Sequence record: MF158044
Reading direction: 5' to 3' (one strand)
DNA from: Shigella phage Sf18
DNA: 64,000 bases
Of the stretch, positions 9,674 through 19,257 are shown in pieces; position 1 is the first letter of the stretch; each line of letters begins with the position of its first letter. A program made the translations under genes and the position numbers. The notes beneath the pieces were generated by a model. That model saw only the letters and a program-made list of their open reading frames with translations, ran no database searches and was not told the DNA's origin.

Positions 9674-11491
9674 ATGACTAAATCAATCTATGCAGTACCA
9701 GCAGGTCTTAATGCAGATGCTTATAAAGCGGGTCATATCTATCAGTATCCAGATGCTACACAGTATCTTATGTTGAACTTAACACCTCGTGGAGATAAAT
9801 GGTTTAACTCTCCGTTAGAGATTGATGGTGTTGTAGCTTTTGGTATTCAGCGTTTTGTAAAAGACTATCTGGTAGACCACTGGAATGCAACGTTCTTTGA
9901 ACGTGATAAGAAAGAAGCCATTGACGAAATCTTGGAAATCATGAATGGTGTCCTTGGTGCAGATGCTATTGGTCGTCAACATTGGGAAGAACTTCATGAC
10001 TTGGGTTACCTGCCTGTTGAAGTCTACTCTGTAGAGGAAGGTACAATTGTCCCTATGCGTGTCCCGATGATTGTCTTCAAAAACACTGTAGAAGGATTCC
10101 ATTGGGTAGCTGGTTATCTTGAAGATGCTTTCTCTGCTGAAATCTGGAAGGCTTGTACGATTGCAACTATTGCACTGCATTACAAACGTATCTGTAAGCA
10201 ATGGGCTGATAAGACCTGTGACAATGACTTCCATTTACCTTGGCAGTGTCATGACTTTGCAATGCGTGGTATGTCTGGCTTCACAGATGATGCGTTTAAC
10301 GCAGTAGGTCACCTGACAAGTTTTAAAGGTACTGACAGCTTCCCTGCTGTATATACAGCTAAACGTGCATATGGTCAGTTTATGAATGTAGGTGAGATTG
10401 GTAACTCTGTCCCAGCTACTGAGCACTCTGTGATGTGTGCAAACATCTCATGGAACAGTCTTAACAAAGAGGTAAGTGATTGGCATCTATCGCATTCTGA
10501 CAACTTACTTGATGCAATGCGTTGGCGTGGTGAGGTAGAAACTTTCCATCGCCTTCTGACAGAAGTTTACCCAACTGGTATTGCAAGTGCCGTATCAGAT
10601 ACTTACAACTTCTGGCGTACTGTTACACAGATTCTGCCAGAGCTACGTAATGTAATTCTGAATCGTGATGGTAAGTTGGTAATTCGTCCAGACTCTGGAG
10701 ACCCTGTTCACATTGTTACAGGTTACAAAGCCATTGAATGGGAAACTGCTAAGTCAATGTTCTATAAGCACATGAAAGAGCTTGCACCGAACAATACACA
10801 TCTGCATGACACAATCTTGAATTGTGAAATGTCTGATATTGGCTTTGGGTTCTCTGCTTGGCTAATCTCTGAAGGTTATGAGATGGTTGTTGATAAAGAA
10901 GATTTTGAATCTGCTGATACAATCAACCTTATTACTGCTCAGAAGACTGGACAGTTTACTGTGAAGCGTATGCTGACAGCAGAAATTGACGGAGCTATCC
11001 ACACGCTGTATAACATCTTTGGTGGCACTGTTAACTCCAAAGGGTACAAAGTACTGGATGAGCACATTGGGCTAATCTACGGTGATTCTATCACTCTGGA
11101 AAGGGCTAATGATATTCTGTCACGTCTTGCTGATAAAGGTTTTGCAAGTTCTAACGTAGTGTTTGGTGTAGGTTCATACACCTATCAGTACCTGACTCGT
11201 GACACCTTTGCATTTGCTGTTAAAGCAACTCTTGCACAGATGGATGGTCAAGAAATTATGCTGGCTAAAGACCCTAAAACTGACAGCGGTCTTAAGAAGT
11301 CTGCTTTTGGTGGAGTTGTCCCTATGTGGGATGGTGACAAGCTGGTAGCTGTAGATGGTTTTGGCTTTGCAGAGTTTGAAGGTGCAATTGACAATTGTCA
11401 TAGTGCTTTGAAACTGGTATTTAGCAACTCGCAACCTTATGGTTACGTTAACCTGCGTGATGTTCGAAATACTATTGACAAGCAACTTTAA
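9674..11491 (+). CDS. nicotinamide phosphoribosyltransferase (Nampt)-like protein; candidate nicotinamide ADPR transferase
   Basis: NAMPT motifs DAYKAGHIYQYP, HDFAMRGMSG, FKGTDS, EHSVM, VSDTYNFW, IRPDSGDP; 605 aa, longer than typical ~490 aa. Confidence 0.85.
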   Translation: MTKSIYAVPAGLNADAYKAGHIYQYPDATQYLMLNLTPRGDKWFNSPLEIDGVVAFGIQRFVKDYLVDHWNATFFERDKKEAIDEILEIMNGVLGADAIGRQHWEELHDLGYLPVEVYSVEEGTIVPMRVPMIVFKNTVEGFHWVAGYLEDAFSAEIWKACTIATIALHYKRICKQWADKTCDNDFHLPWQCHDFAMRGMSGFTDDAFNAVGHLTSFKGTDSFPAVYTAKRAYGQFMNVGEIGNSVPATEHSVMCANISWNSLNKEVSDWHLSHSDNLLDAMRWRGEVETFHRLLTEVYPTGIASAVSDTYNFWRTVTQILPELRNVILNRDGKLVIRPDSGDPVHIVTGYKAIEWETAKSMFYKHMKELAPNNTHLHDTILNCEMSDIGFGFSAWLISEGYEMVVDKEDFESADTINLITAQKTGQFTVKRMLTAEIDGAIHTLYNIFGGTVNSKGYKVLDEHIGLIYGDSITLERANDILSRLADKGFASSNVVFGVGSYTYQYLTRDTFAFAVKATLAQMDGQEIMLAKDPKTDSGLKKSAFGGVVPMWDGDKLVAVDGFGFAEFEGAIDNCHSALKLVFSNSQPYGYVNLRDVRNTIDKQL

Positions 11492-11503
11492 AACAGTATG
11501 ATA

Positions 11504-11528
11504 AGAGGCTCCTACGGGAGCCTTTTTA
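11504..11528 (+). terminator. rho-independent terminator after Nampt-like gene
   Basis: GAGGCTCC-tacg-GGAGCCTT then TTTT. Confidence 0.6.
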
Positions 11529-11544
11529 ATTTGTGGAGAAGAGT

Positions 11545-11760
11545 ATGAGATTTAACACGGATTTATTTTATACAGATAGCACTGGATTCTTTGGGGGATA
11601 TTGTGTAGCATCTTGGCAGCTATGGTTCTCAGAAGAGTACAGAGGTGATATGCAGGTTTTTGTAGAAGATTATAAGTTTCCTGCAAAACCTACTAAACGC
11701 CAGATTAGAAAGCTTCGCAGAGAGTTTCGTAAAACTTGCAAAAGGATTAACAAACTATGA
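11545..11760 (+). CDS. hypothetical protein
   Basis: ATG with GGAGAAG RBS; ORF-track GTG start 11533. Confidence 0.4.
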   Translation: MRFNTDLFYTDSTGFFGGYCVASWQLWFSEEYRGDMQVFVEDYKFPAKPTKRQIRKLRREFRKTCKRINKL

Positions 11761-12092
11761 AAATTAAACAGATGAATGTTAATTTAATCATTGAAGAACG
11801 TTGGGAAAACATCAAGCGCCCTGAAGATGGCCATAAGTTTATCAATGAACTGTTTCAAGCAGCACAATCAGAGTTAGCTTCTGAGATTTATACAACGGTT
11901 ACTTTGAAGGTCTATATCAAAGGTCTTCCACAGAACCATCAAGAAGCTCTTGATTTGTTTCAAGAAAGGTTTTACAATCCAAACAAAAAGATACTTGAGA
12001 ATAGTTTTGCAGTATCTTCGAGTATTGTTCATGACAGGAGTTTTGTCCTATTCAGAACTATAGGAGATAAGGTATGCAAGGTTATTGGTTAG
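11757..12092 (+). CDS. hypothetical protein
   Basis: 111 aa ORF, start overlaps previous stop (ATGA). Confidence 0.4.
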   Translation: MKIKQMNVNLIIEERWENIKRPEDGHKFINELFQAAQSELASEIYTTVTLKVYIKGLPQNHQEALDLFQERFYNPNKKILENSFAVSSSIVHDRSFVLFRTIGDKVCKVIG

Positions 12093-12253
12093 AAATTGTT
12101 CTTTCACTCGGTTGTATAGTTGCTATTGCAGTGTTACTATGCAAGTACTTCTCAGAGACTGAACCTTGTGATGAGTGTGAAGGTTCTGGGGTAGTTGGTA
12201 TAGGGCATTGTTGCCCTTACTGTAATGGAACTGGAAAGAAATTTAAAAAGTAA
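12074..12253 (+). CDS. membrane-anchored mini-protein with two CxxCxGxG (DnaJ-type zinc-finger) motifs
   Basis: 59-aa ORF below ORF-track cutoff; AGGAG RBS 6 nt upstream; TM helix then CDECEGSG and CPYCNGTG. Confidence 0.35.
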   Translation: MQGYWLEIVLSLGCIVAIAVLLCKYFSETEPCDECEGSGVVGIGHCCPYCNGTGKKFKK

Positions 12254-12315
12254 CTTGACAGTGGCATCTATAAAATTATATAGTTTGCCACATCGACAAC
12301 TAAGGAGATATTCTT

Positions 12316-14688
12316 ATGCGCATGGTAAATGACCACGCAACGGTAATTAAAAGCTCAAGTACACTGGAAACCTCTCAGGCTCAGATTAAGATGACACCTG
12401 AAATGTTCAGTCTTCTAAGCTCAGGTGTTTACACATATAAAGAACGTGCTGTAATTCGTGAATTGTCATGTAACGCAGTAGATGCTCACATTGATTCTGG
12501 TAACGTTGATAAACCTTTCTTGGTTCACTTACCAACTCGTTTCGAGCCATTCTTTGAAGTTCGTGACTTTGGTACAGGGCTGACTCATGATAAAGTTATG
12601 AAACTTTACATGACCTATGGAGAATCTACAAAGAACGATTCAAACGACTACATTGGTGCTATGGGTATCGGTTCAAAGTCACCTTTTGCAATTGCTCAGT
12701 CATTCACTGTATCAAGCTATGTTGATGGTGTAGTTAACAAATACTCAGTTTACCTTGAGAATGGCATCCCTCAAGTAACTAAGTTGACTACTAACCCAAC
12801 TACAGAGCCAAATGGTTTAGCTGTTCGAGTAGCGGTATCCGATAACCGTATCAACAAGTTTCATGAAGAAGCGAGCAATGTATACTCGTACTTTAAAGTT
12901 AAGCCAGAGTGTAATGTTGAGTACTATGACATTCTTGAAGCAATGACTTCCATTTCTCGTGAAGATGGTGTCTATGATGCAATGAAGTACAAAGAGAACT
13001 GGCGTTCAAATAGTAACAGTGTCCATTTCAATGTAATCATGGGTAATATTGCTTATCCTGTTGAAATGGGTGAGTTGCTTGGTTCAGAGTTTACAAGCAT
13101 TCTGCCTCAGTTCTTCCGTAGTGCTGTAGACCTTGTTAACATCTACATGCCAATTGGTTCAGTGGCTATTGCTGCATCTCGTGAAGCATTGCAGATGAAT
13201 GAGACCACTAAGACCAAGATTGTTGAAGCTGTGAAGAAAATCACTAAGACAATCGTAGAAGATGTGGTAAAAGAGATTGCTAACAAGCCAACTCTGATTG
13301 ATGCTGCTCAAGCCTATGATACCATGAGGAAGGAGGCTCGTGAAATCTTTATTCACGTCCAAGATTCTCTGGAATGGCAAGGCCAGAACTTGAAAAAGCT
13401 TGAACAAAAACTGTTAGGTATCCGTCGTGGTCAGTTAACTGAAGCAGATGGTTCTCCATCATTCTTGAAAGATGATGCAGGTAACTTGAGGCTTGACAAA
13501 GATGGTAATCCAGTTCCTAATATTGGTAATCTGTATGAACCTGTAGCATACTACAAGTACAGCAGTCTGGAGAACCGTATTCGAGCAACTTCAGCAACTT
13601 ATTCACAAGATTCAGCAATGTTTAGTATCTTTGGTGCAATGAGTAAAGATAAGTTGAGCAACTATTTGTTCCTTATCAATGACCGTCGAAACAAGAACGG
13701 GTCTGAGAAGACAACTGGTAAAAACCAGATTATCCGTGGAGCTTGCCGTGACCGTGAACAGGAAGACTCTAACTTCCGTCGCTACAACGGTATTGCTTTC
13801 TTGTTCAGCAGTCAGCAGCAATTCGATGAGTTTGTAGATTTGCATATGCTTGACAAGAGTCTGTTAAGTGTGCATACAATGTCATCTAAAGAGCACCACT
13901 ATGAGAAACGTACTATTGTACGTGGTGTTGTAAAACTGTATAAAGCATTTATATGTCCAAATACCGACATAATTCGCTATACAGAGGTTAAAGAGAACTT
14001 TGATGAGATTGAAGAACCACAACTGTATATCAAAGCACAGAGTGATGAAGTGATTGGTGGAATCTTCTCATGTTCACCAGAACGTGCTGCAACGTTGATG
14101 ACAGAGTTAACTGGACAGTCAGTTTATGTCTTCCGTAAAGCCAACTGGAAAAAGATTCCTGAAGATTGGACAGAAGTCAATGAACAAGTATTGAAAGATT
14201 TTATTGATGCCACACATTGGATTGAGTATCATCGTTTCTTGACTCACCAGTATATGACAAATAATCACGATATCACTGATTGTAATGTTATTTCTCGAAA
14301 CTTTACGTTTGCTGATAAGCGTAAGTCCAGAGGCCACATTTACAGTAAAGATTTTAAGAAGACTATTTTCTTAGAAGGGAATGAAGAAGCTATAGAAGCA
14401 ATGTTTGGACGCTTGGCATACACTGCTGCACCAGTTGCTTACAAAGATATTACCAGCACTCTTGATACCATTCGTAGGAATATGAGAGGTTCTTGTAAGC
14501 CAAGAAAGGTTCTGGATAACGCTAAGAAGCGTCTTGAAAGCAAGTTCAAAGATTACTTTGAGAAACGCCGTAAAGAAAACTTCTTGCTTTCTAATCTGGA
14601 TTGGAATAAAGTATCACCAGTCGAAGTTGGTAAGTTCTTAGGTTTTGATACTAAGAGCATTCCAGAAGACACTGTATGCTGGGATTAA
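12316..14688 (+). CDS. rIIA: rIIA-like protein with N-terminal GHKL-type ATPase fold
   Basis: Bergerat-fold motifs (ELSCNAVDA, RDFGTGL, GAMGIGSKS); 790 aa; followed by rIIB-like gene. Confidence 0.6.
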   Translation: MRMVNDHATVIKSSSTLETSQAQIKMTPEMFSLLSSGVYTYKERAVIRELSCNAVDAHIDSGNVDKPFLVHLPTRFEPFFEVRDFGTGLTHDKVMKLYMTYGESTKNDSNDYIGAMGIGSKSPFAIAQSFTVSSYVDGVVNKYSVYLENGIPQVTKLTTNPTTEPNGLAVRVAVSDNRINKFHEEASNVYSYFKVKPECNVEYYDILEAMTSISREDGVYDAMKYKENWRSNSNSVHFNVIMGNIAYPVEMGELLGSEFTSILPQFFRSAVDLVNIYMPIGSVAIAASREALQMNETTKTKIVEAVKKITKTIVEDVVKEIANKPTLIDAAQAYDTMRKEAREIFIHVQDSLEWQGQNLKKLEQKLLGIRRGQLTEADGSPSFLKDDAGNLRLDKDGNPVPNIGNLYEPVAYYKYSSLENRIRATSATYSQDSAMFSIFGAMSKDKLSNYLFLINDRRNKNGSEKTTGKNQIIRGACRDREQEDSNFRRYNGIAFLFSSQQQFDEFVDLHMLDKSLLSVHTMSSKEHHYEKRTIVRGVVKLYKAFICPNTDIIRYTEVKENFDEIEEPQLYIKAQSDEVIGGIFSCSPERAATLMTELTGQSVYVFRKANWKKIPEDWTEVNEQVLKDFIDATHWIEYHRFLTHQYMTNNHDITDCNVISRNFTFADKRKSRGHIYSKDFKKTIFLEGNEEAIEAMFGRLAYTAAPVAYKDITSTLDTIRRNMRGSCKPRKVLDNAKKRLESKFKDYFEKRRKENFLLSNLDWNKVSPVEVGKFLGFDTKSIPEDTVCWD

Positions 14689-14767: not shown

Positions 14768-15889
14768 ATGACTACTAAGACTAAAGCACAAATCGACGCA
14801 GAAATCTATGCACTGGTTAAAGAAGGTAAACTGACCAAAACTGCAATTGCTCTGAAGTATAACACTTCAACCCGTTCAGTAGGTCGTGCTGTAGAGCGTC
14901 ATGAAGCAACACTGCTGTCAGGGAAAACCAAAGCAAAACCTGCAAAGACTCTGAAAGATATTGCAAAGAATGCTAAGAAAGCTAAAGCGACCAAGAAAGT
15001 ATCTAAGCAGAAACCTGTTGCAAAAGCTGTTAAAGAAGCAGTCAAAGCAGAGCCTGTAAATGCTCTGCATGAAGCAATGCAGAATAACAGCCAGATTGAA
15101 TACATGATTACTGGTGATTCTGTTATCATGACTTTCGGTGCAGAGTCTGAGATTGTTGAGTCAACTCATCCTAACTACACTGATATTGTAATGGCTGTTG
15201 TTTCAGGTGAGTACAAGAAAGCTTTTGAACTGATGAACATTCGCAAGTCTATTGAGAACTTCACTCAAGGTGCTGTAACCATCAAAGGTGACAACCTGTA
15301 TTACGGTGCTGTTCAGATGCGCTCAACTCTGGTAGACCGTATTCTGGATATGATGAAGAAAGGTGATAATGGTTTTGTTCGACTGATTGAATTCTTTGAA
15401 AAACTGATGGAAAACCCATCAAAAGATTCTGTAGAACAACTTTGGGGCTTTGTATCACACCTTGATGTTGAAATTGATGAAGAAGGTTATATCATCGGCT
15501 GGAAGAAAGTCACAACTCGTGGTGGTAAACTGTTTGACTCTCGTACCTGCAAAGTTCCAAATGATTTGGGTAACATTGTAGAGATGCCACGTTGGATGGT
15601 TGATAATAACCGTCATGTAACCTGCTCTCAGGGTCTGCACGTTGGTGCTTGGGATTATGTAACTAGCTTCTCTGGTGACACTATCCTGAAAGTTCGTGTT
15701 CATCCTCGTGATGTTGTTTCAGTACCAACTGACTACAACGACATGAAAATGCGAGCTTCCCGCTATGAAGTTGCAGCGATTGTAAATAGTCGCCGTGAAG
15801 TCATCAAAGAGTGGGATGGTTCAGAAGCACTCCACGTAGTTGTAGGTACTGCTGGTGAACTGATTTCTCAGCGTAAACGTGAAGTTTAA
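14768..15889 (+). CDS. rIIB: rIIB-like protein
   Basis: 373 aa ORF immediately downstream of rIIA-like gene; assignment by synteny and family recollection. Confidence 0.5.
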   Translation: MTTKTKAQIDAEIYALVKEGKLTKTAIALKYNTSTRSVGRAVERHEATLLSGKTKAKPAKTLKDIAKNAKKAKATKKVSKQKPVAKAVKEAVKAEPVNALHEAMQNNSQIEYMITGDSVIMTFGAESEIVESTHPNYTDIVMAVVSGEYKKAFELMNIRKSIENFTQGAVTIKGDNLYYGAVQMRSTLVDRILDMMKKGDNGFVRLIEFFEKLMENPSKDSVEQLWGFVSHLDVEIDEEGYIIGWKKVTTRGGKLFDSRTCKVPNDLGNIVEMPRWMVDNNRHVTCSQGLHVGAWDYVTSFSGDTILKVRVHPRDVVSVPTDYNDMKMRASRYEVAAIVNSRREVIKEWDGSEALHVVVGTAGELISQRKREV

Positions 15890-15959: not shown

Positions 15960-15990
15960 TGTCTGCATGTTTAACAAAATAGGAGTGCAA

Positions 15991-16539
15991 ATGAAGAAAT
16001 TTGTTTTAGGTTTGTGCTTATTCTTTACAGCACATTTAGCTACAGCATCTGACTGTCCAGAGCTTACAATCAGCCAGAAAGTTAATATGTTAAAAGCATA
16101 TAACTATGGCGAAGGGCAGATGGGAAAAGGTTGGGGAATCCCTTTAGCAGCTATAGCCTTACAAGAGTCACAATTAGGTGTCATGTTAGAAAATAAAAAG
16201 ACTCATGATTATGGTGTTTTCCAGAATCACTTGAAGACTGTTGTAAAGCGTAACAAGGTATCTCCAAAGGTTGCTAAGAAGAAGCTAGTAAGTGACTTCC
16301 ATTACTCAGCGAAAGAGGCTCATAAAGAGCTATTATTCTGGACTAAGGTTCATGGCAACCCAGATGGAAAGTACTCTATGAAGCGTGTCCTAGCTTCTTA
16401 TAATGCTGGTTACAAATACAAGATTCCAAAGGCTAGACAATACTCTCAAGATGTGTACAATAACATGAAACTGCTTGCTCAATGTGAGTTTGCAACAAAC
16501 ATTAAAAAGGTAAAATATGAGCGAATCAAAACAATTTGA
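15991..16539 (+). CDS. secreted lytic transglycosylase (SLT-domain)-like protein
   Basis: Signal peptide MKKFVLGLCLFFTAHLATA; motifs ALQESQLG, GVFQ, ASYNAGYKY resemble SLT catalytic core. Confidence 0.55.
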   Translation: MKKFVLGLCLFFTAHLATASDCPELTISQKVNMLKAYNYGEGQMGKGWGIPLAAIALQESQLGVMLENKKTHDYGVFQNHLKTVVKRNKVSPKVAKKKLVSDFHYSAKEAHKELLFWTKVHGNPDGKYSMKRVLASYNAGYKYKIPKARQYSQDVYNNMKLLAQCEFATNIKKVKYERIKTI

Positions 16540-17740: not shown

Positions 17741-18088
17741 ATGACGTTTAAAGAATTTTGTCAAGCAGCTTTTGCAATCATTTTCTTAACAGGTGTTGGT
17801 GCTTGGGGAGGCTACACTTACAAGACCAGCCAAGTTAATGAAAAGGAGTTAACTAACCAGAGACTTGTGAGTGTTGCTAAAGATGCTTATCAAGAGGGTT
17901 TATCAAATCTTAGCTCCAATTACAAAAATGATTTGAAAGATGTGCTTGCTAAAAACAAACACACCAAAGAGGTATTGAACTATGAAAAAACTAAGACAGT
18001 CTTTATTAATGATTGTGCTACTGAGCCTTATGTCAGGGTGTTCAACGAACAAAGTGAACAGTACCTTCAAAAACTCCCAAGTAAGTGA
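17741..18088 (+). CDS. inner-membrane spanin-like protein
   Basis: N-terminal TM helix; gene overlapped out of frame by lipoprotein ORF (Rz/Rz1-like arrangement). Confidence 0.5.
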   Translation: MTFKEFCQAAFAIIFLTGVGAWGGYTYKTSQVNEKELTNQRLVSVAKDAYQEGLSNLSSNYKNDLKDVLAKNKHTKEVLNYEKTKTVFINDCATEPYVRVFNEQSEQYLQKLPSK

Positions 18089-18248
18089 GAGTGACAAGTA
18101 CACTCAAGAAGAAGCACGGTATGAGGTTAAAGGTACTAAAGGTGAAGACCTTGCAAGTGCTCTTGAGTTTTATCGTGATGGTTACTATGAATGTACTATT
18201 AAGGCAAACAATTTAATTGATATGATTTTGTTAGGGAATAAGCAGTAA
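17982..18248 (+). CDS. outer-membrane lipoprotein spanin-like protein
   Basis: Lipoprotein signal with lipobox LMSGC; starts inside the preceding gene in another frame. Confidence 0.55.
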   Translation: MKKLRQSLLMIVLLSLMSGCSTNKVNSTFKNSQVSESDKYTQEEARYEVKGTKGEDLASALEFYRDGYYECTIKANNLIDMILLGNKQ

Positions 18249-18853: not shown

Positions 18854-19064
18854 AGTTACACGTCAAGTGTTAGTAGGGGCTATATTTGTTGGACGGGATG
18901 AGGTAATACCATTCATGAACCCCTTGATTCACTACAACTTCAAGATAGGGGATTTTAAACACTACCTGAATCCTCTGCTTACAAGATTAAGCTTAGAAGA
19001 GTTTAAGTGTAATTACTCTTATGAAGGTGATACATACTTCCAAGAGGTAATATCAAATGGCTGA
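18828..19064 (+). CDS. hypothetical protein
   Basis: 78 aa ORF overlapping previous gene end. Confidence 0.35.
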   Translation: MKAILVRSKVTRQVLVGAIFVGRDEVIPFMNPLIHYNFKIGDFKHYLNPLLTRLSLEEFKCNYSYEGDTYFQEVISNG

Positions 19065-19257
19065 TTTCTGCACTAAGTGTTCTGTTGAGATGTTTGGAAA
19101 AGACACAGGGGACTTAAAAGGCCTCTTTACAAAAGCAGAGTTTGAAGCTGGTTCAGCAATGCCAGTAATCTGTGAAGGTTGTGGTGCTTTATGGGTAGAC
19201 CATGAAGGTAACCGAGTTAAACCATCTGAAGATAACGAACGTTGGGAGCATTACTAA
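19057..19257 (+). CDS. small Cys-rich (zinc-ribbon-like) protein
   Basis: 66 aa; CxxC ... CxxC spacing. Confidence 0.35.
   Translation: MADFCTKCSVEMFGKDTGDLKGLFTKAEFEAGSAMPVICEGCGALWVDHEGNRVKPSEDNERWEHY

Follow-up and report, generated by a model that had tools for sequence, protein, structure and literature searches.

Gene organization between nadV and rIIA

The analyzed window is a 64,000-nucleotide stretch of the genome of Shigella phage Sf18 (sequence record MF158044), of which the region 11500-12800 shows 98.5% identity to Shigella phage Sf17 (Ounavirinae, genus Mooglevirus, Felix O1-like). In this region, PRPP synthetase is followed by nadV, a 75-aa ORF, a 111-aa ORF, a 59-aa mini-ORF, rIIA and rIIB, in this order. 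The mini-ORF is located on the plus strand at positions 12074..12253, starts with ATG and ends with TAA, and its translation is identical to the 59-aa sequence given in a preliminary description of this DNA that was made from the letters alone. The same description placed an AGGAG ribosome-binding site (RBS) 6 nt upstream of the start codon; reading the sequence directly, we found this Shine-Dalgarno element at 12062..12066 (+), but the spacing to the ATG is 7 nt.

The start of the mini-ORF overlaps the 3' end of the 111-aa ORF (11757..12092, +) by 19 nt (12074..12092, +); the overlap recurs in the annotations of Sf17, Mijalis, Felix O1, SUSP2 and SUSP1, and translational coupling of the mini-ORF to the 111-aa ORF is suggested. 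The two small upstream ORFs, namely the 75-aa ORF (DUF7279, PHROG 2375) and the 111-aa ORF (PHROG 4262), together span positions 11533..12092 (+). The DUF7279 ORF is missing from 3HA14, Felix O1 and SUSP2, both small ORFs are missing from Pectobacterium phage Arno162, and no similarity was detected between the 111-aa ORF and the ORF that occupies the same slot in Erwinia phage phiEa21-4. Given this dissimilarity in phiEa21-4 and the absence from Arno162, we rejected the 111-aa ORF as an obligate companion of the mini-ORF.

The preliminary description noted a rIIA-like gene just downstream, and the ORF at 12316..14688 (+) indeed matches PHROG 612 (rIIA, E = 1e-184; maximum KD19 1.43) and is followed by rIIB at 14768..15889 (+; PHROG 609, E = 5e-85; maximum KD19 0.78); no transmembrane (TM) segment is predicted in either rIIA or rIIB. 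Two sigma-70-like promoters were detected in this region. The first (TTGACA-16-TATGAT, 11475..11526, +) abuts the nadV terminator hairpin, which has an annotated counterpart at this position in Mijalis and Mordin, and lies 5' of the three small ORFs, where it is the probable early promoter of the cluster 11533..12253. The second (TTGACA-18-TATAGT, 11/12; 12255..12284, +) is located in the 62-nt gap between the mini-ORF and rIIA and is conserved in Mijalis, Mordin and phiSUSP1. In Felix O1, the corresponding gap is only 28 nt long and no promoter was found in it, so in Felixounavirus the mini-ORF is probably co-transcribed with rIIA. Judging from the sigma-70-like promoters and from the position among nucleotide-metabolism and rII genes, the mini-ORF is probably expressed early.

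The combination of one TM segment with two CxxCxGxG motifs, on which the preliminary description was centered, is readily recognized in the mini-protein. The TM helix comprises residues 5-23 (WLEIVLSLGCIVAIAVLLC; 12086..12142, +), with a mean Kyte-Doolittle hydropathy (KD19) of 2.53, and is the sole strongly hydrophobic segment encoded in the local gene cluster. It is followed by the motifs CDECEGSG (C32, D, E, C35, E, G37, S, G39; 12167..12190, +) and CPYCNGTG (C47, P, Y, C50, N, G52, T, G54; 12212..12235, +), and the protein ends with a charged tail, KKFKK. These are the only two CxxCxGxG motifs in the six-frame translation of the entire 64-kb window, whereas 100 shuffles of the window produced a mean of 0.11 single motifs and the double motif in none (0/100).

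Annotation, conservation and distribution of the mini-ORF

The mini-ORF had been taken to be unannotated, but as an ORF it is not new: its product is already catalogued, as a hypothetical protein, for hundreds of phages of the Felix O1 type. The identical protein is already listed in Sf17 (gp109, 'predicted membrane protein') and Mijalis (gp001, 'putative cytoplasmic membrane protein'), and UniProt/BFVD already contain the identical protein of Sf18 itself. The orthologs in Felix O1 (ORF131, Felix01p243, 'hypothetical membrane protein') and SUSP1 (AVU07_agp080) represent the same gene, with 52-100% identity across this set and an unchanged location between nadV and rIIA; all correspond to PHROG 3931, the HMM of which matches the mini-protein over the full length (E = 2.2e-33, 115 bits, residues 1-59 on profile positions 1-59 of 59). 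In some records, the homologs are named 'dnaJ: chaperone protein', 'chaperone protein' or 'heat shock protein', and a few GenBank records omit the mini-ORF or call another ORF in its place. Literature searches, which covered the locus tags, transcriptomic work on Felix O1 and any characterized DnaJ-like zinc-finger mini-protein of a phage, yielded genome-annotation mentions only, and we found no published paper that assigns a function to this gene.

A tblastn search detected matches to the protein in 256 phage records, with coverage of 80% or above in 252 of these; the identity is 100% for Sf14 and 3HA14 but has dropped to about 52% for Felix O1. Conservation of the reading frame upstream of rIIA in related phages, which the preliminary description had named as a check, is thus borne out in approximately 256 Ounavirinae records, and the gene fills the slot before rIIA in all Ounavirinae lineages examined: in the window, Sf17, Mijalis, Felix O1, SUSP2, SUSP1, Mordin, Arno162 and phiEa21-4, it is found after nadV and immediately 5' of rIIA. 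In several genera, the frame, the start codon and the RBS are retained even where identity has fallen to about 35-50%. The purine-rich RBS is kept in all relatives examined, with a GGAG/GAGG-type sequence in the same position in Mijalis, Mordin, phiSUSP1, SUSP2, CHB7 and Felix O1. For 8 aligned orthologs, the dN/dS values are 0.03-0.23 in close pairs (dS about 0.27-0.47) and 0.1-0.6 in distant pairs. Frameshifted or truncated copies are present in a few singleton sequences (P0006-P0010) and may reflect sequencing errors or occasional loss. The comparison of the homologous sequences strongly supports the prediction that the mini-ORF is a genuine protein-coding gene under purifying selection.

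The SUSP1 ortholog agp080 (86% identical to the mini-protein) was included in a transcriptome-wide dCas13d knock-down screen, where, with 7 guides, it showed a fitness of 1.05 (KS p = 0.11) and was classified as 'Not Fit', whereas the adjacent rIIA gene had a fitness of 1.83 and was classified as 'Semi-Fit' (PMC11879866). In the same phage, knock-down of rIIA/rIIB had an effect solely on RexAB-expressing cells (PMC11879866). Dispensability of this close ortholog on a defense-poor laboratory host is strongly supported. Together with the very short length of the ORF and the frameshifted or truncated copies in a few phages, this dispensability could be taken to indicate a spurious ORF without a function; however, this reading is effectively refuted by the conservation data, that is, the dN/dS values in close pairs and the retention of frame, start codon and RBS across several genera, and the failure of shuffled windows to yield the double motif argues against it as well.

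Extending the analysis with an exhaustive profile search against 1.84 billion representatives, we identified only a handful of full-length relatives in addition to generic multi-repeat CxxCxGxG proteins. In Arno162, the gene series after nadV ends with orf146 (52 aa), and orf1, at the genome start, is rIIA (37% identity). In phiEa21-4, rIIA is directly preceded by gp117 (54 aa), a type that is represented in 37 Kolesnikvirus-type records. RB49p046 (52 aa), which is found in about 60 T4-like Krischvirus genomes, is located between gp55.2 and nrdH and overlaps nrdH by 11 nt, with rIIA about 30 kb away. Among the metagenomic homologs, P0087 has an 11-nt overlap with a glutaredoxin-like ORF, and the neighbors of P0077 have no PHROG or Pfam match. 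A profile constructed from core Ounavirinae sequences only matched 5 of the 5 distant members over the TM segment and the finger, with 29-40 bits. RB49p046, gp117 and orf146 resemble the mini-protein in size (52-54 aa) and in layout (a TM helix, a basic residue, CxxCxGxG, 5-7 residues and (C)CxxCxGxG), and the first two are its nearest BFVD structures. The distant homologs differ from it in that the TM sequences are not conserved and the RB49 copy follows nrdH instead of preceding rIIA.

The alignment of 16 sequences, which covers Felixounavirus, Mooglevirus, Suspvirus, Kolesnikvirus and the unclassified Arno162 (all Ounavirinae), Krischvirus and two metagenomic members, contains eight invariant columns: M1 and, all of them within the two motifs, C32, C35, G37, C47, C50, G52 and G54. 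C46 (in P0003) and G39 are not invariant. The surface features of the family are not uniform, given that phiSUSP1 carries G39D in the first motif and that the tail of the phiEa21-4 homolog is acidic instead of basic.

The main rival to the interpretation that we favor is that the mini-protein is a third, membrane-anchoring component of the rII system of Ounavirinae, which would tether or regulate rIIA/rIIB at the inner membrane and help to counter Rex-type abortive infection. No gene separates the mini-ORF from rIIA in Mooglevirus, Felixounavirus, Suspvirus, Kolesnikvirus or the Arno162 group, however much the ORFs 5' of it vary, the Felixounavirus gap to rIIA is short and promoterless, and neither rII protein has a TM segment of its own. 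Furthermore, like the rII genes of SUSP1, the mini-ORF is dispensable on a Rex-free host, and its fitness value tops those of its 'Not Fit' neighbors, next to the 'Semi-Fit' rIIA. However, adjacency to rIIA is not found wherever the gene occurs; the link is lineage-specific, the RB49-type copy being distant from rIIA and overlapping nrdH, and the divergent metagenomic copy being coupled to a glutaredoxin-like ORF. The rII functions of T4 are exerted without such a protein: T4 encodes rIIA and rIIB but no counterpart of the mini-protein, and rIIA.1, which we considered as a positional equivalent, is unrelated and has neither a TM segment nor cysteines. The synteny within Ounavirinae is itself weak evidence because these genomes are collinear throughout, and in the window rIIA has a promoter-like site of its own. 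We therefore consider the rII role unlikely; if true, a 70-year-old puzzle would gain a membrane component and would be open to testing in SUSP1.

Predicted membrane topology and zinc-finger fold

In 16 of the 16 family members, there are no lysines or arginines N-terminal of the helix and 2-8 such residues C-terminal of it. Under the positive-inside rule, this distribution predicts an N-out/C-in topology, with the finger in the cytoplasm. The opposite orientation, with a periplasmic finger (N-in/C-out), was rejected as contrary to the positive-inside rule and as incompatible with the expectation that a Zn(Cys)4 site is stable in the cytoplasm but not in the oxidizing periplasm.

The AF2 model of the mini-protein (pLDDT 71) consists of a helix (residues 3-28) followed by short hairpins. 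In a Foldseek search of the PDB, the top 12 matches are all DnaJ-type zinc fingers, including anti-TRAP, the DnaJ cysteine-rich (CR) domain 1exk, DnaJA2 and BSD2, with rmsd of 1.0-2.0 Å, although the E-values of only 0.3-2 are not significant alone because the domain is tiny; the best matches are anti-TRAP (rmsd 1.0-1.3 Å over 30 residues, probability 0.97-0.98), DnaJ CR and BSD2. At the sequence level, the family profile matches 1exk with E = 4e-5 (motif pairs 1-2 and 3-4) and anti-TRAP with E-values of 0.04-0.12. The DnaJ-type zinc-finger signature seen in the preliminary description is thereby corroborated. A fold search of BFVD retrieved phiEa21-4 gp117 and RB49p046 first, followed by many short phage DnaJ-like zinc-finger proteins. 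Such short proteins without a J domain are common in phages, as judged from BFVD, and are mentioned in passing in genome papers.

The modeling and profile data strongly support the prediction that residues from about 30 to 56 form a hairpin of the DnaJ-CR/anti-TRAP type with four invariant cysteines, in which both motifs together would make up one predicted Zn(Cys)4 center. With paired motifs, invariant cysteines and glycines, and a superposable model, the mini-protein can be assigned to the DnaJ-type zinc-finger fold class, as far as the predicted structure goes.

A cysteine-rich finger encoded next to nucleotide-metabolism genes raises the question of a thiol-redox role, either as a membrane-bound thiol-disulfide oxidoreductase or as a redox partner of NrdH/ribonucleotide reductase. 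The DnaJ Cys-rich domain and the plant protein LQY1 show oxidoreductase or protein disulfide isomerase (PDI) activity in vitro (PMC5818400), the gene is translationally coupled, via the 11-nt overlap, to the nrdH glutaredoxin in RB49 and in the divergent relative, and the Ounavirinae neighborhood includes PRPP synthetase and nadV, with nrdA-like genes in phiEa21-4. Several points speak against this possibility, which we regard as a minor and improbable rival: the Ounavirinae have no redoxin neighbor, a redox role gives no reason for the membrane anchor, a structural Zn(Cys)4 site is indicated by the hairpin of the anti-TRAP type and by the invariance of the CxxCxGxG pairs, and the chaperone activity of ZnJ2 is thiol-independent (PMC5818400).

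The small size, the single TM helix and the charged C-terminus, as would be expected of a holin, bring up the other minor rival, namely that the mini-protein is the missing holin of Ounavirinae or an antiholin-like lysis regulator. No holin has been identified in Ounavirinae, that is, the Felix O1-like phages (PMC11879866, PMC4837284), a spanin-like pair is located about 5.5 kb downstream of the mini-ORF, and lysis genes would escape the read-out of the knock-down screen (PMC11879866). Nevertheless, the mini-ORF is found not in a late-gene or lysis cassette but in an early-type context, between nadV and rIIA and behind sigma-70-like promoters, and the lysin of Felix O1-like genomes is located elsewhere (PMC4837284). 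Moreover, the 4-residue periplasmic end that follows from the predicted topology would provide no periplasmic sensing domain. The RB49-like phages possess a homolog and yet, being T4-type phages (Straboviridae), are expected to have a T4-type holin of their own, and a Zn(Cys)4 finger is not known from any holin class. A role in lysis thus appears highly improbable.

A putative membrane-tethered zinc knuckle and its known counterparts

The interpretation that we favor, with a probability of roughly 0.45, is that the mini-ORF is an early accessory gene encoding a membrane-tethered zinc knuckle, that is, a J-independent protein-binding module at the cytoplasmic face of the inner membrane. Under this scenario, the product would be bitopic, with its first 4 residues in the periplasm, followed by one TM helix and a cytoplasmic tail of about 35 residues that would bind one zinc ion via C32, C35, C47 and C50. 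The tethered knuckle might hold, sequester or block a partner independently of any J domain, with anti-TRAP, BSD2/ZnJ2 and plant FIP, each bound to its specific target, as models of partner binding. Because the gene occurs in two lineages with differing neighbors (rIIA in one, nrdH in the other), an autonomous role is favored, and the partner would more likely be a host component common to Enterobacterales than the product of a neighboring gene. Several observations speak against this interpretation: the cutoffs of the curated families in Pfam and NCBIfam were all missed, the Foldseek E-values are not significant alone, the surface features vary within the family, and a phage-encoded partner might be the reason why the gene is strictly adjacent to rIIA in every lineage of Ounavirinae.

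A more specific and, in our assessment, improbable version is that the mini-protein is a phage counterpart of FIP that docks early in infection on an inner-membrane quality-control machine of the host (FtsH or membrane-recruited DnaK) and reprograms host proteolysis or chaperoning, a strategy that the Felix O1-like and the RB49-like myoviruses of Enterobacterales would have in common. If a host membrane machine is indeed targeted, the mini-protein would represent a compact inhibitor or adaptor of natural origin. No part of phage genomes is less well understood than the small membrane proteins, and the one described here is encoded by a core gene of the therapeutically used Felix O1-like subfamily that also occurs in a T4-like genus. 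The main gain from the present analysis is a cleaner annotation: a predicted inner-membrane protein of bitopic topology that would expose one zinc center of the DnaJ type to the cytoplasm and that lacks a J domain. 'Zinc-binding regulator', one of the two labels offered in the preliminary description, is a fair, if putative, one; the other, 'chaperone-mimic', is overstated.

With the CR domain of DnaJ (PF00684), the mini-protein shares the CxxCxGxG motif and the local fold, but DnaJ contains four motifs, two interleaved zinc centers, a J domain and substrate-binding domains, whereas the mini-protein contains two motifs, one predicted center and a TM anchor. Four CxxCxGxG repeats of the DnaJ type were sought, but only two are present in the mini-ORF and in the entire window; Pfam and NCBIfam searches detected no J domain with an HPD motif in the mini-protein, the first 28 residues of which are taken up by the TM helix. 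Lacking a J domain and having only one zinc center, the mini-protein is not a DnaJ, and membership in DnaJ/Hsp40 type I was rejected (PF00684, 18.2 bits against a cutoff of 32.7; TIGR02349, 14.6 against 377). The DjlA protein of E. coli is another piece of the DnaJ toolkit that is anchored in the inner membrane and faces the cytoplasm; it has a J domain and no zinc finger, so that DjlA and the mini-protein represent converse halves, a J domain without the finger and a finger without the J domain.

The closest structural match is anti-TRAP (RtpA) of Bacillus, a small protein of 53 aa that binds one target and contains a single Zn(Cys)4 hairpin formed by two adjacent DnaJ-like motifs; the spacing of 14 residues between the first and the third cysteine is the same as in the Felix O1 variant. 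The mini-protein scores far below the cutoffs of the anti-TRAP families (PF15777, 11.8 bits against 32; NF058604, RtpA, 16.9 against 65), and membership was rejected. Anti-TRAP is soluble, with an N-terminal finger followed by an oligomerization helix, and its target, TRAP, is missing from enterobacteria; in the mini-protein, the finger instead follows the helix, which, as its hydropathy indicates, anchors the protein in the membrane.

A similar design is that of Arabidopsis FIP (At5g02160), which combines a TM segment with two CXXCXGXG motifs and, with its finger in the stroma, binds the membrane protease FtsH5 (PMC5915565). Mature FIP, with a short lumenal end, one TM segment, a two-motif finger on the stromal side and no J domain (PMC5915565), corresponds to the mini-protein in architecture and in predicted topology; unlike it, FIP is eukaryotic and organellar and carries a transit peptide. 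The likeness, which was assessed by comparing descriptions, is one of design only, and convergence appears as likely as homology. Other plastid J-less relatives in design are LQY1 and BSD2/ZnJ2, and BSD2 is also among the fold matches of the mini-protein. ZnJ2 (BSD2) is a DnaK-independent holding chaperone with one client, and the characterized J-less DnaJ-like zinc-finger proteins are, in general, target-specific binders that act independently of DnaK (PMC5818400). The mini-protein is a phage, membrane-anchored addition to this known class of J-less DnaJ-type zinc-finger proteins.

Sigma-70-like promoter, terminator and small ORFs between nadV and rIIA

A near-consensus sigma-70-like promoter (TTGACA-16-TATGAT) is followed by the terminator hairpin downstream of nadV (together 11475-11526); the hairpin has a 10-bp stem and begins 1 nt past the promoter. 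Judging from this arrangement, a transcript initiating approximately 7 nt past the -10 element would carry an incomplete hairpin and could escape termination. The next ORF (11533..11760; 75 aa) belongs to the DUF7279 family of Pfam and to PHROG 2375, and shows a presence/absence polymorphism among the relatives: it is found in Sf17, SUSP1, Mordin and CHB7 and, among the genomes compared, is absent from the 3HA14/Sf14-type Moogleviruses, Felix O1 and SUSP2. The 111-aa ORF that follows (11757..12092; PHROG 4262) overlaps the mini-ORF (12074..12253, plus strand) by 19 nt, and searches of Pfam and NCBIfam with its product returned no matches. Of two distant Ounavirinae relatives, Erwinia phage phiEa21-4 has gp116 (113 aa) in the equivalent slot, with no detectable similarity to the 111-aa protein, and Pectobacterium phage Arno162 has no ORF there.

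ORFs downstream of rIIB

Directly 3' of rIIB lies a 190-aa ORF (15967..16539) with an N-terminus, FVLGLCLFFTAHLATASDC, that resembles a signal peptide; its SUSP1 ortholog is a member of PHROG 600, a family without a known function. Two overlapping ORFs (17741..18088 and 17982..18248) look like an i-spanin/o-spanin pair, and their SUSP1 orthologs carry the label 'lysis'. The 115-aa member of this putative pair has a hydrophobic segment at its N-terminus, and the 88-aa member contains a lipobox-like LMSGC. A 66-aa ORF (19057..19257) with the pattern CxxC...CxxC (MADFCTKC...CEGCG) encodes another putative small zinc-ribbon protein, as predicted from these motifs; CxxC-x5-25-CxxC pairs number 5 in the six frames of the window versus 0.68 in shuffled sequences.

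The mini-ORF in close and distant relatives

The mini-ORF is intact in Shigella phage vB_SflM_004 (1575-1751 of its locus, L008), where it is unannotated, and in phage CHB7 (1574-1747 of L009), for which the record instead lists another ORF, of 46 aa, that overlaps the beginning of rIIA. A few Felix O1-type versions of the mini-protein (P0006-P0010) are singletons that are frameshifted or N-terminally truncated (e.g., phiWec177, NJ12 and GE_vB_B3), which may reflect sequencing errors or occasional gene loss. In the T4-like phage RB49 (29883..30300; L022 17884-18301), the start of the mini-ORF overlaps the 3' end of an nrdH/glutaredoxin-like gene by 11 nt, and the same overlap with such a gene is present in a divergent metagenomic relative (L016 255-699). 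This shared gene arrangement suggests that, in these two relatives, the mini-ORF is translationally coupled to the redoxin.
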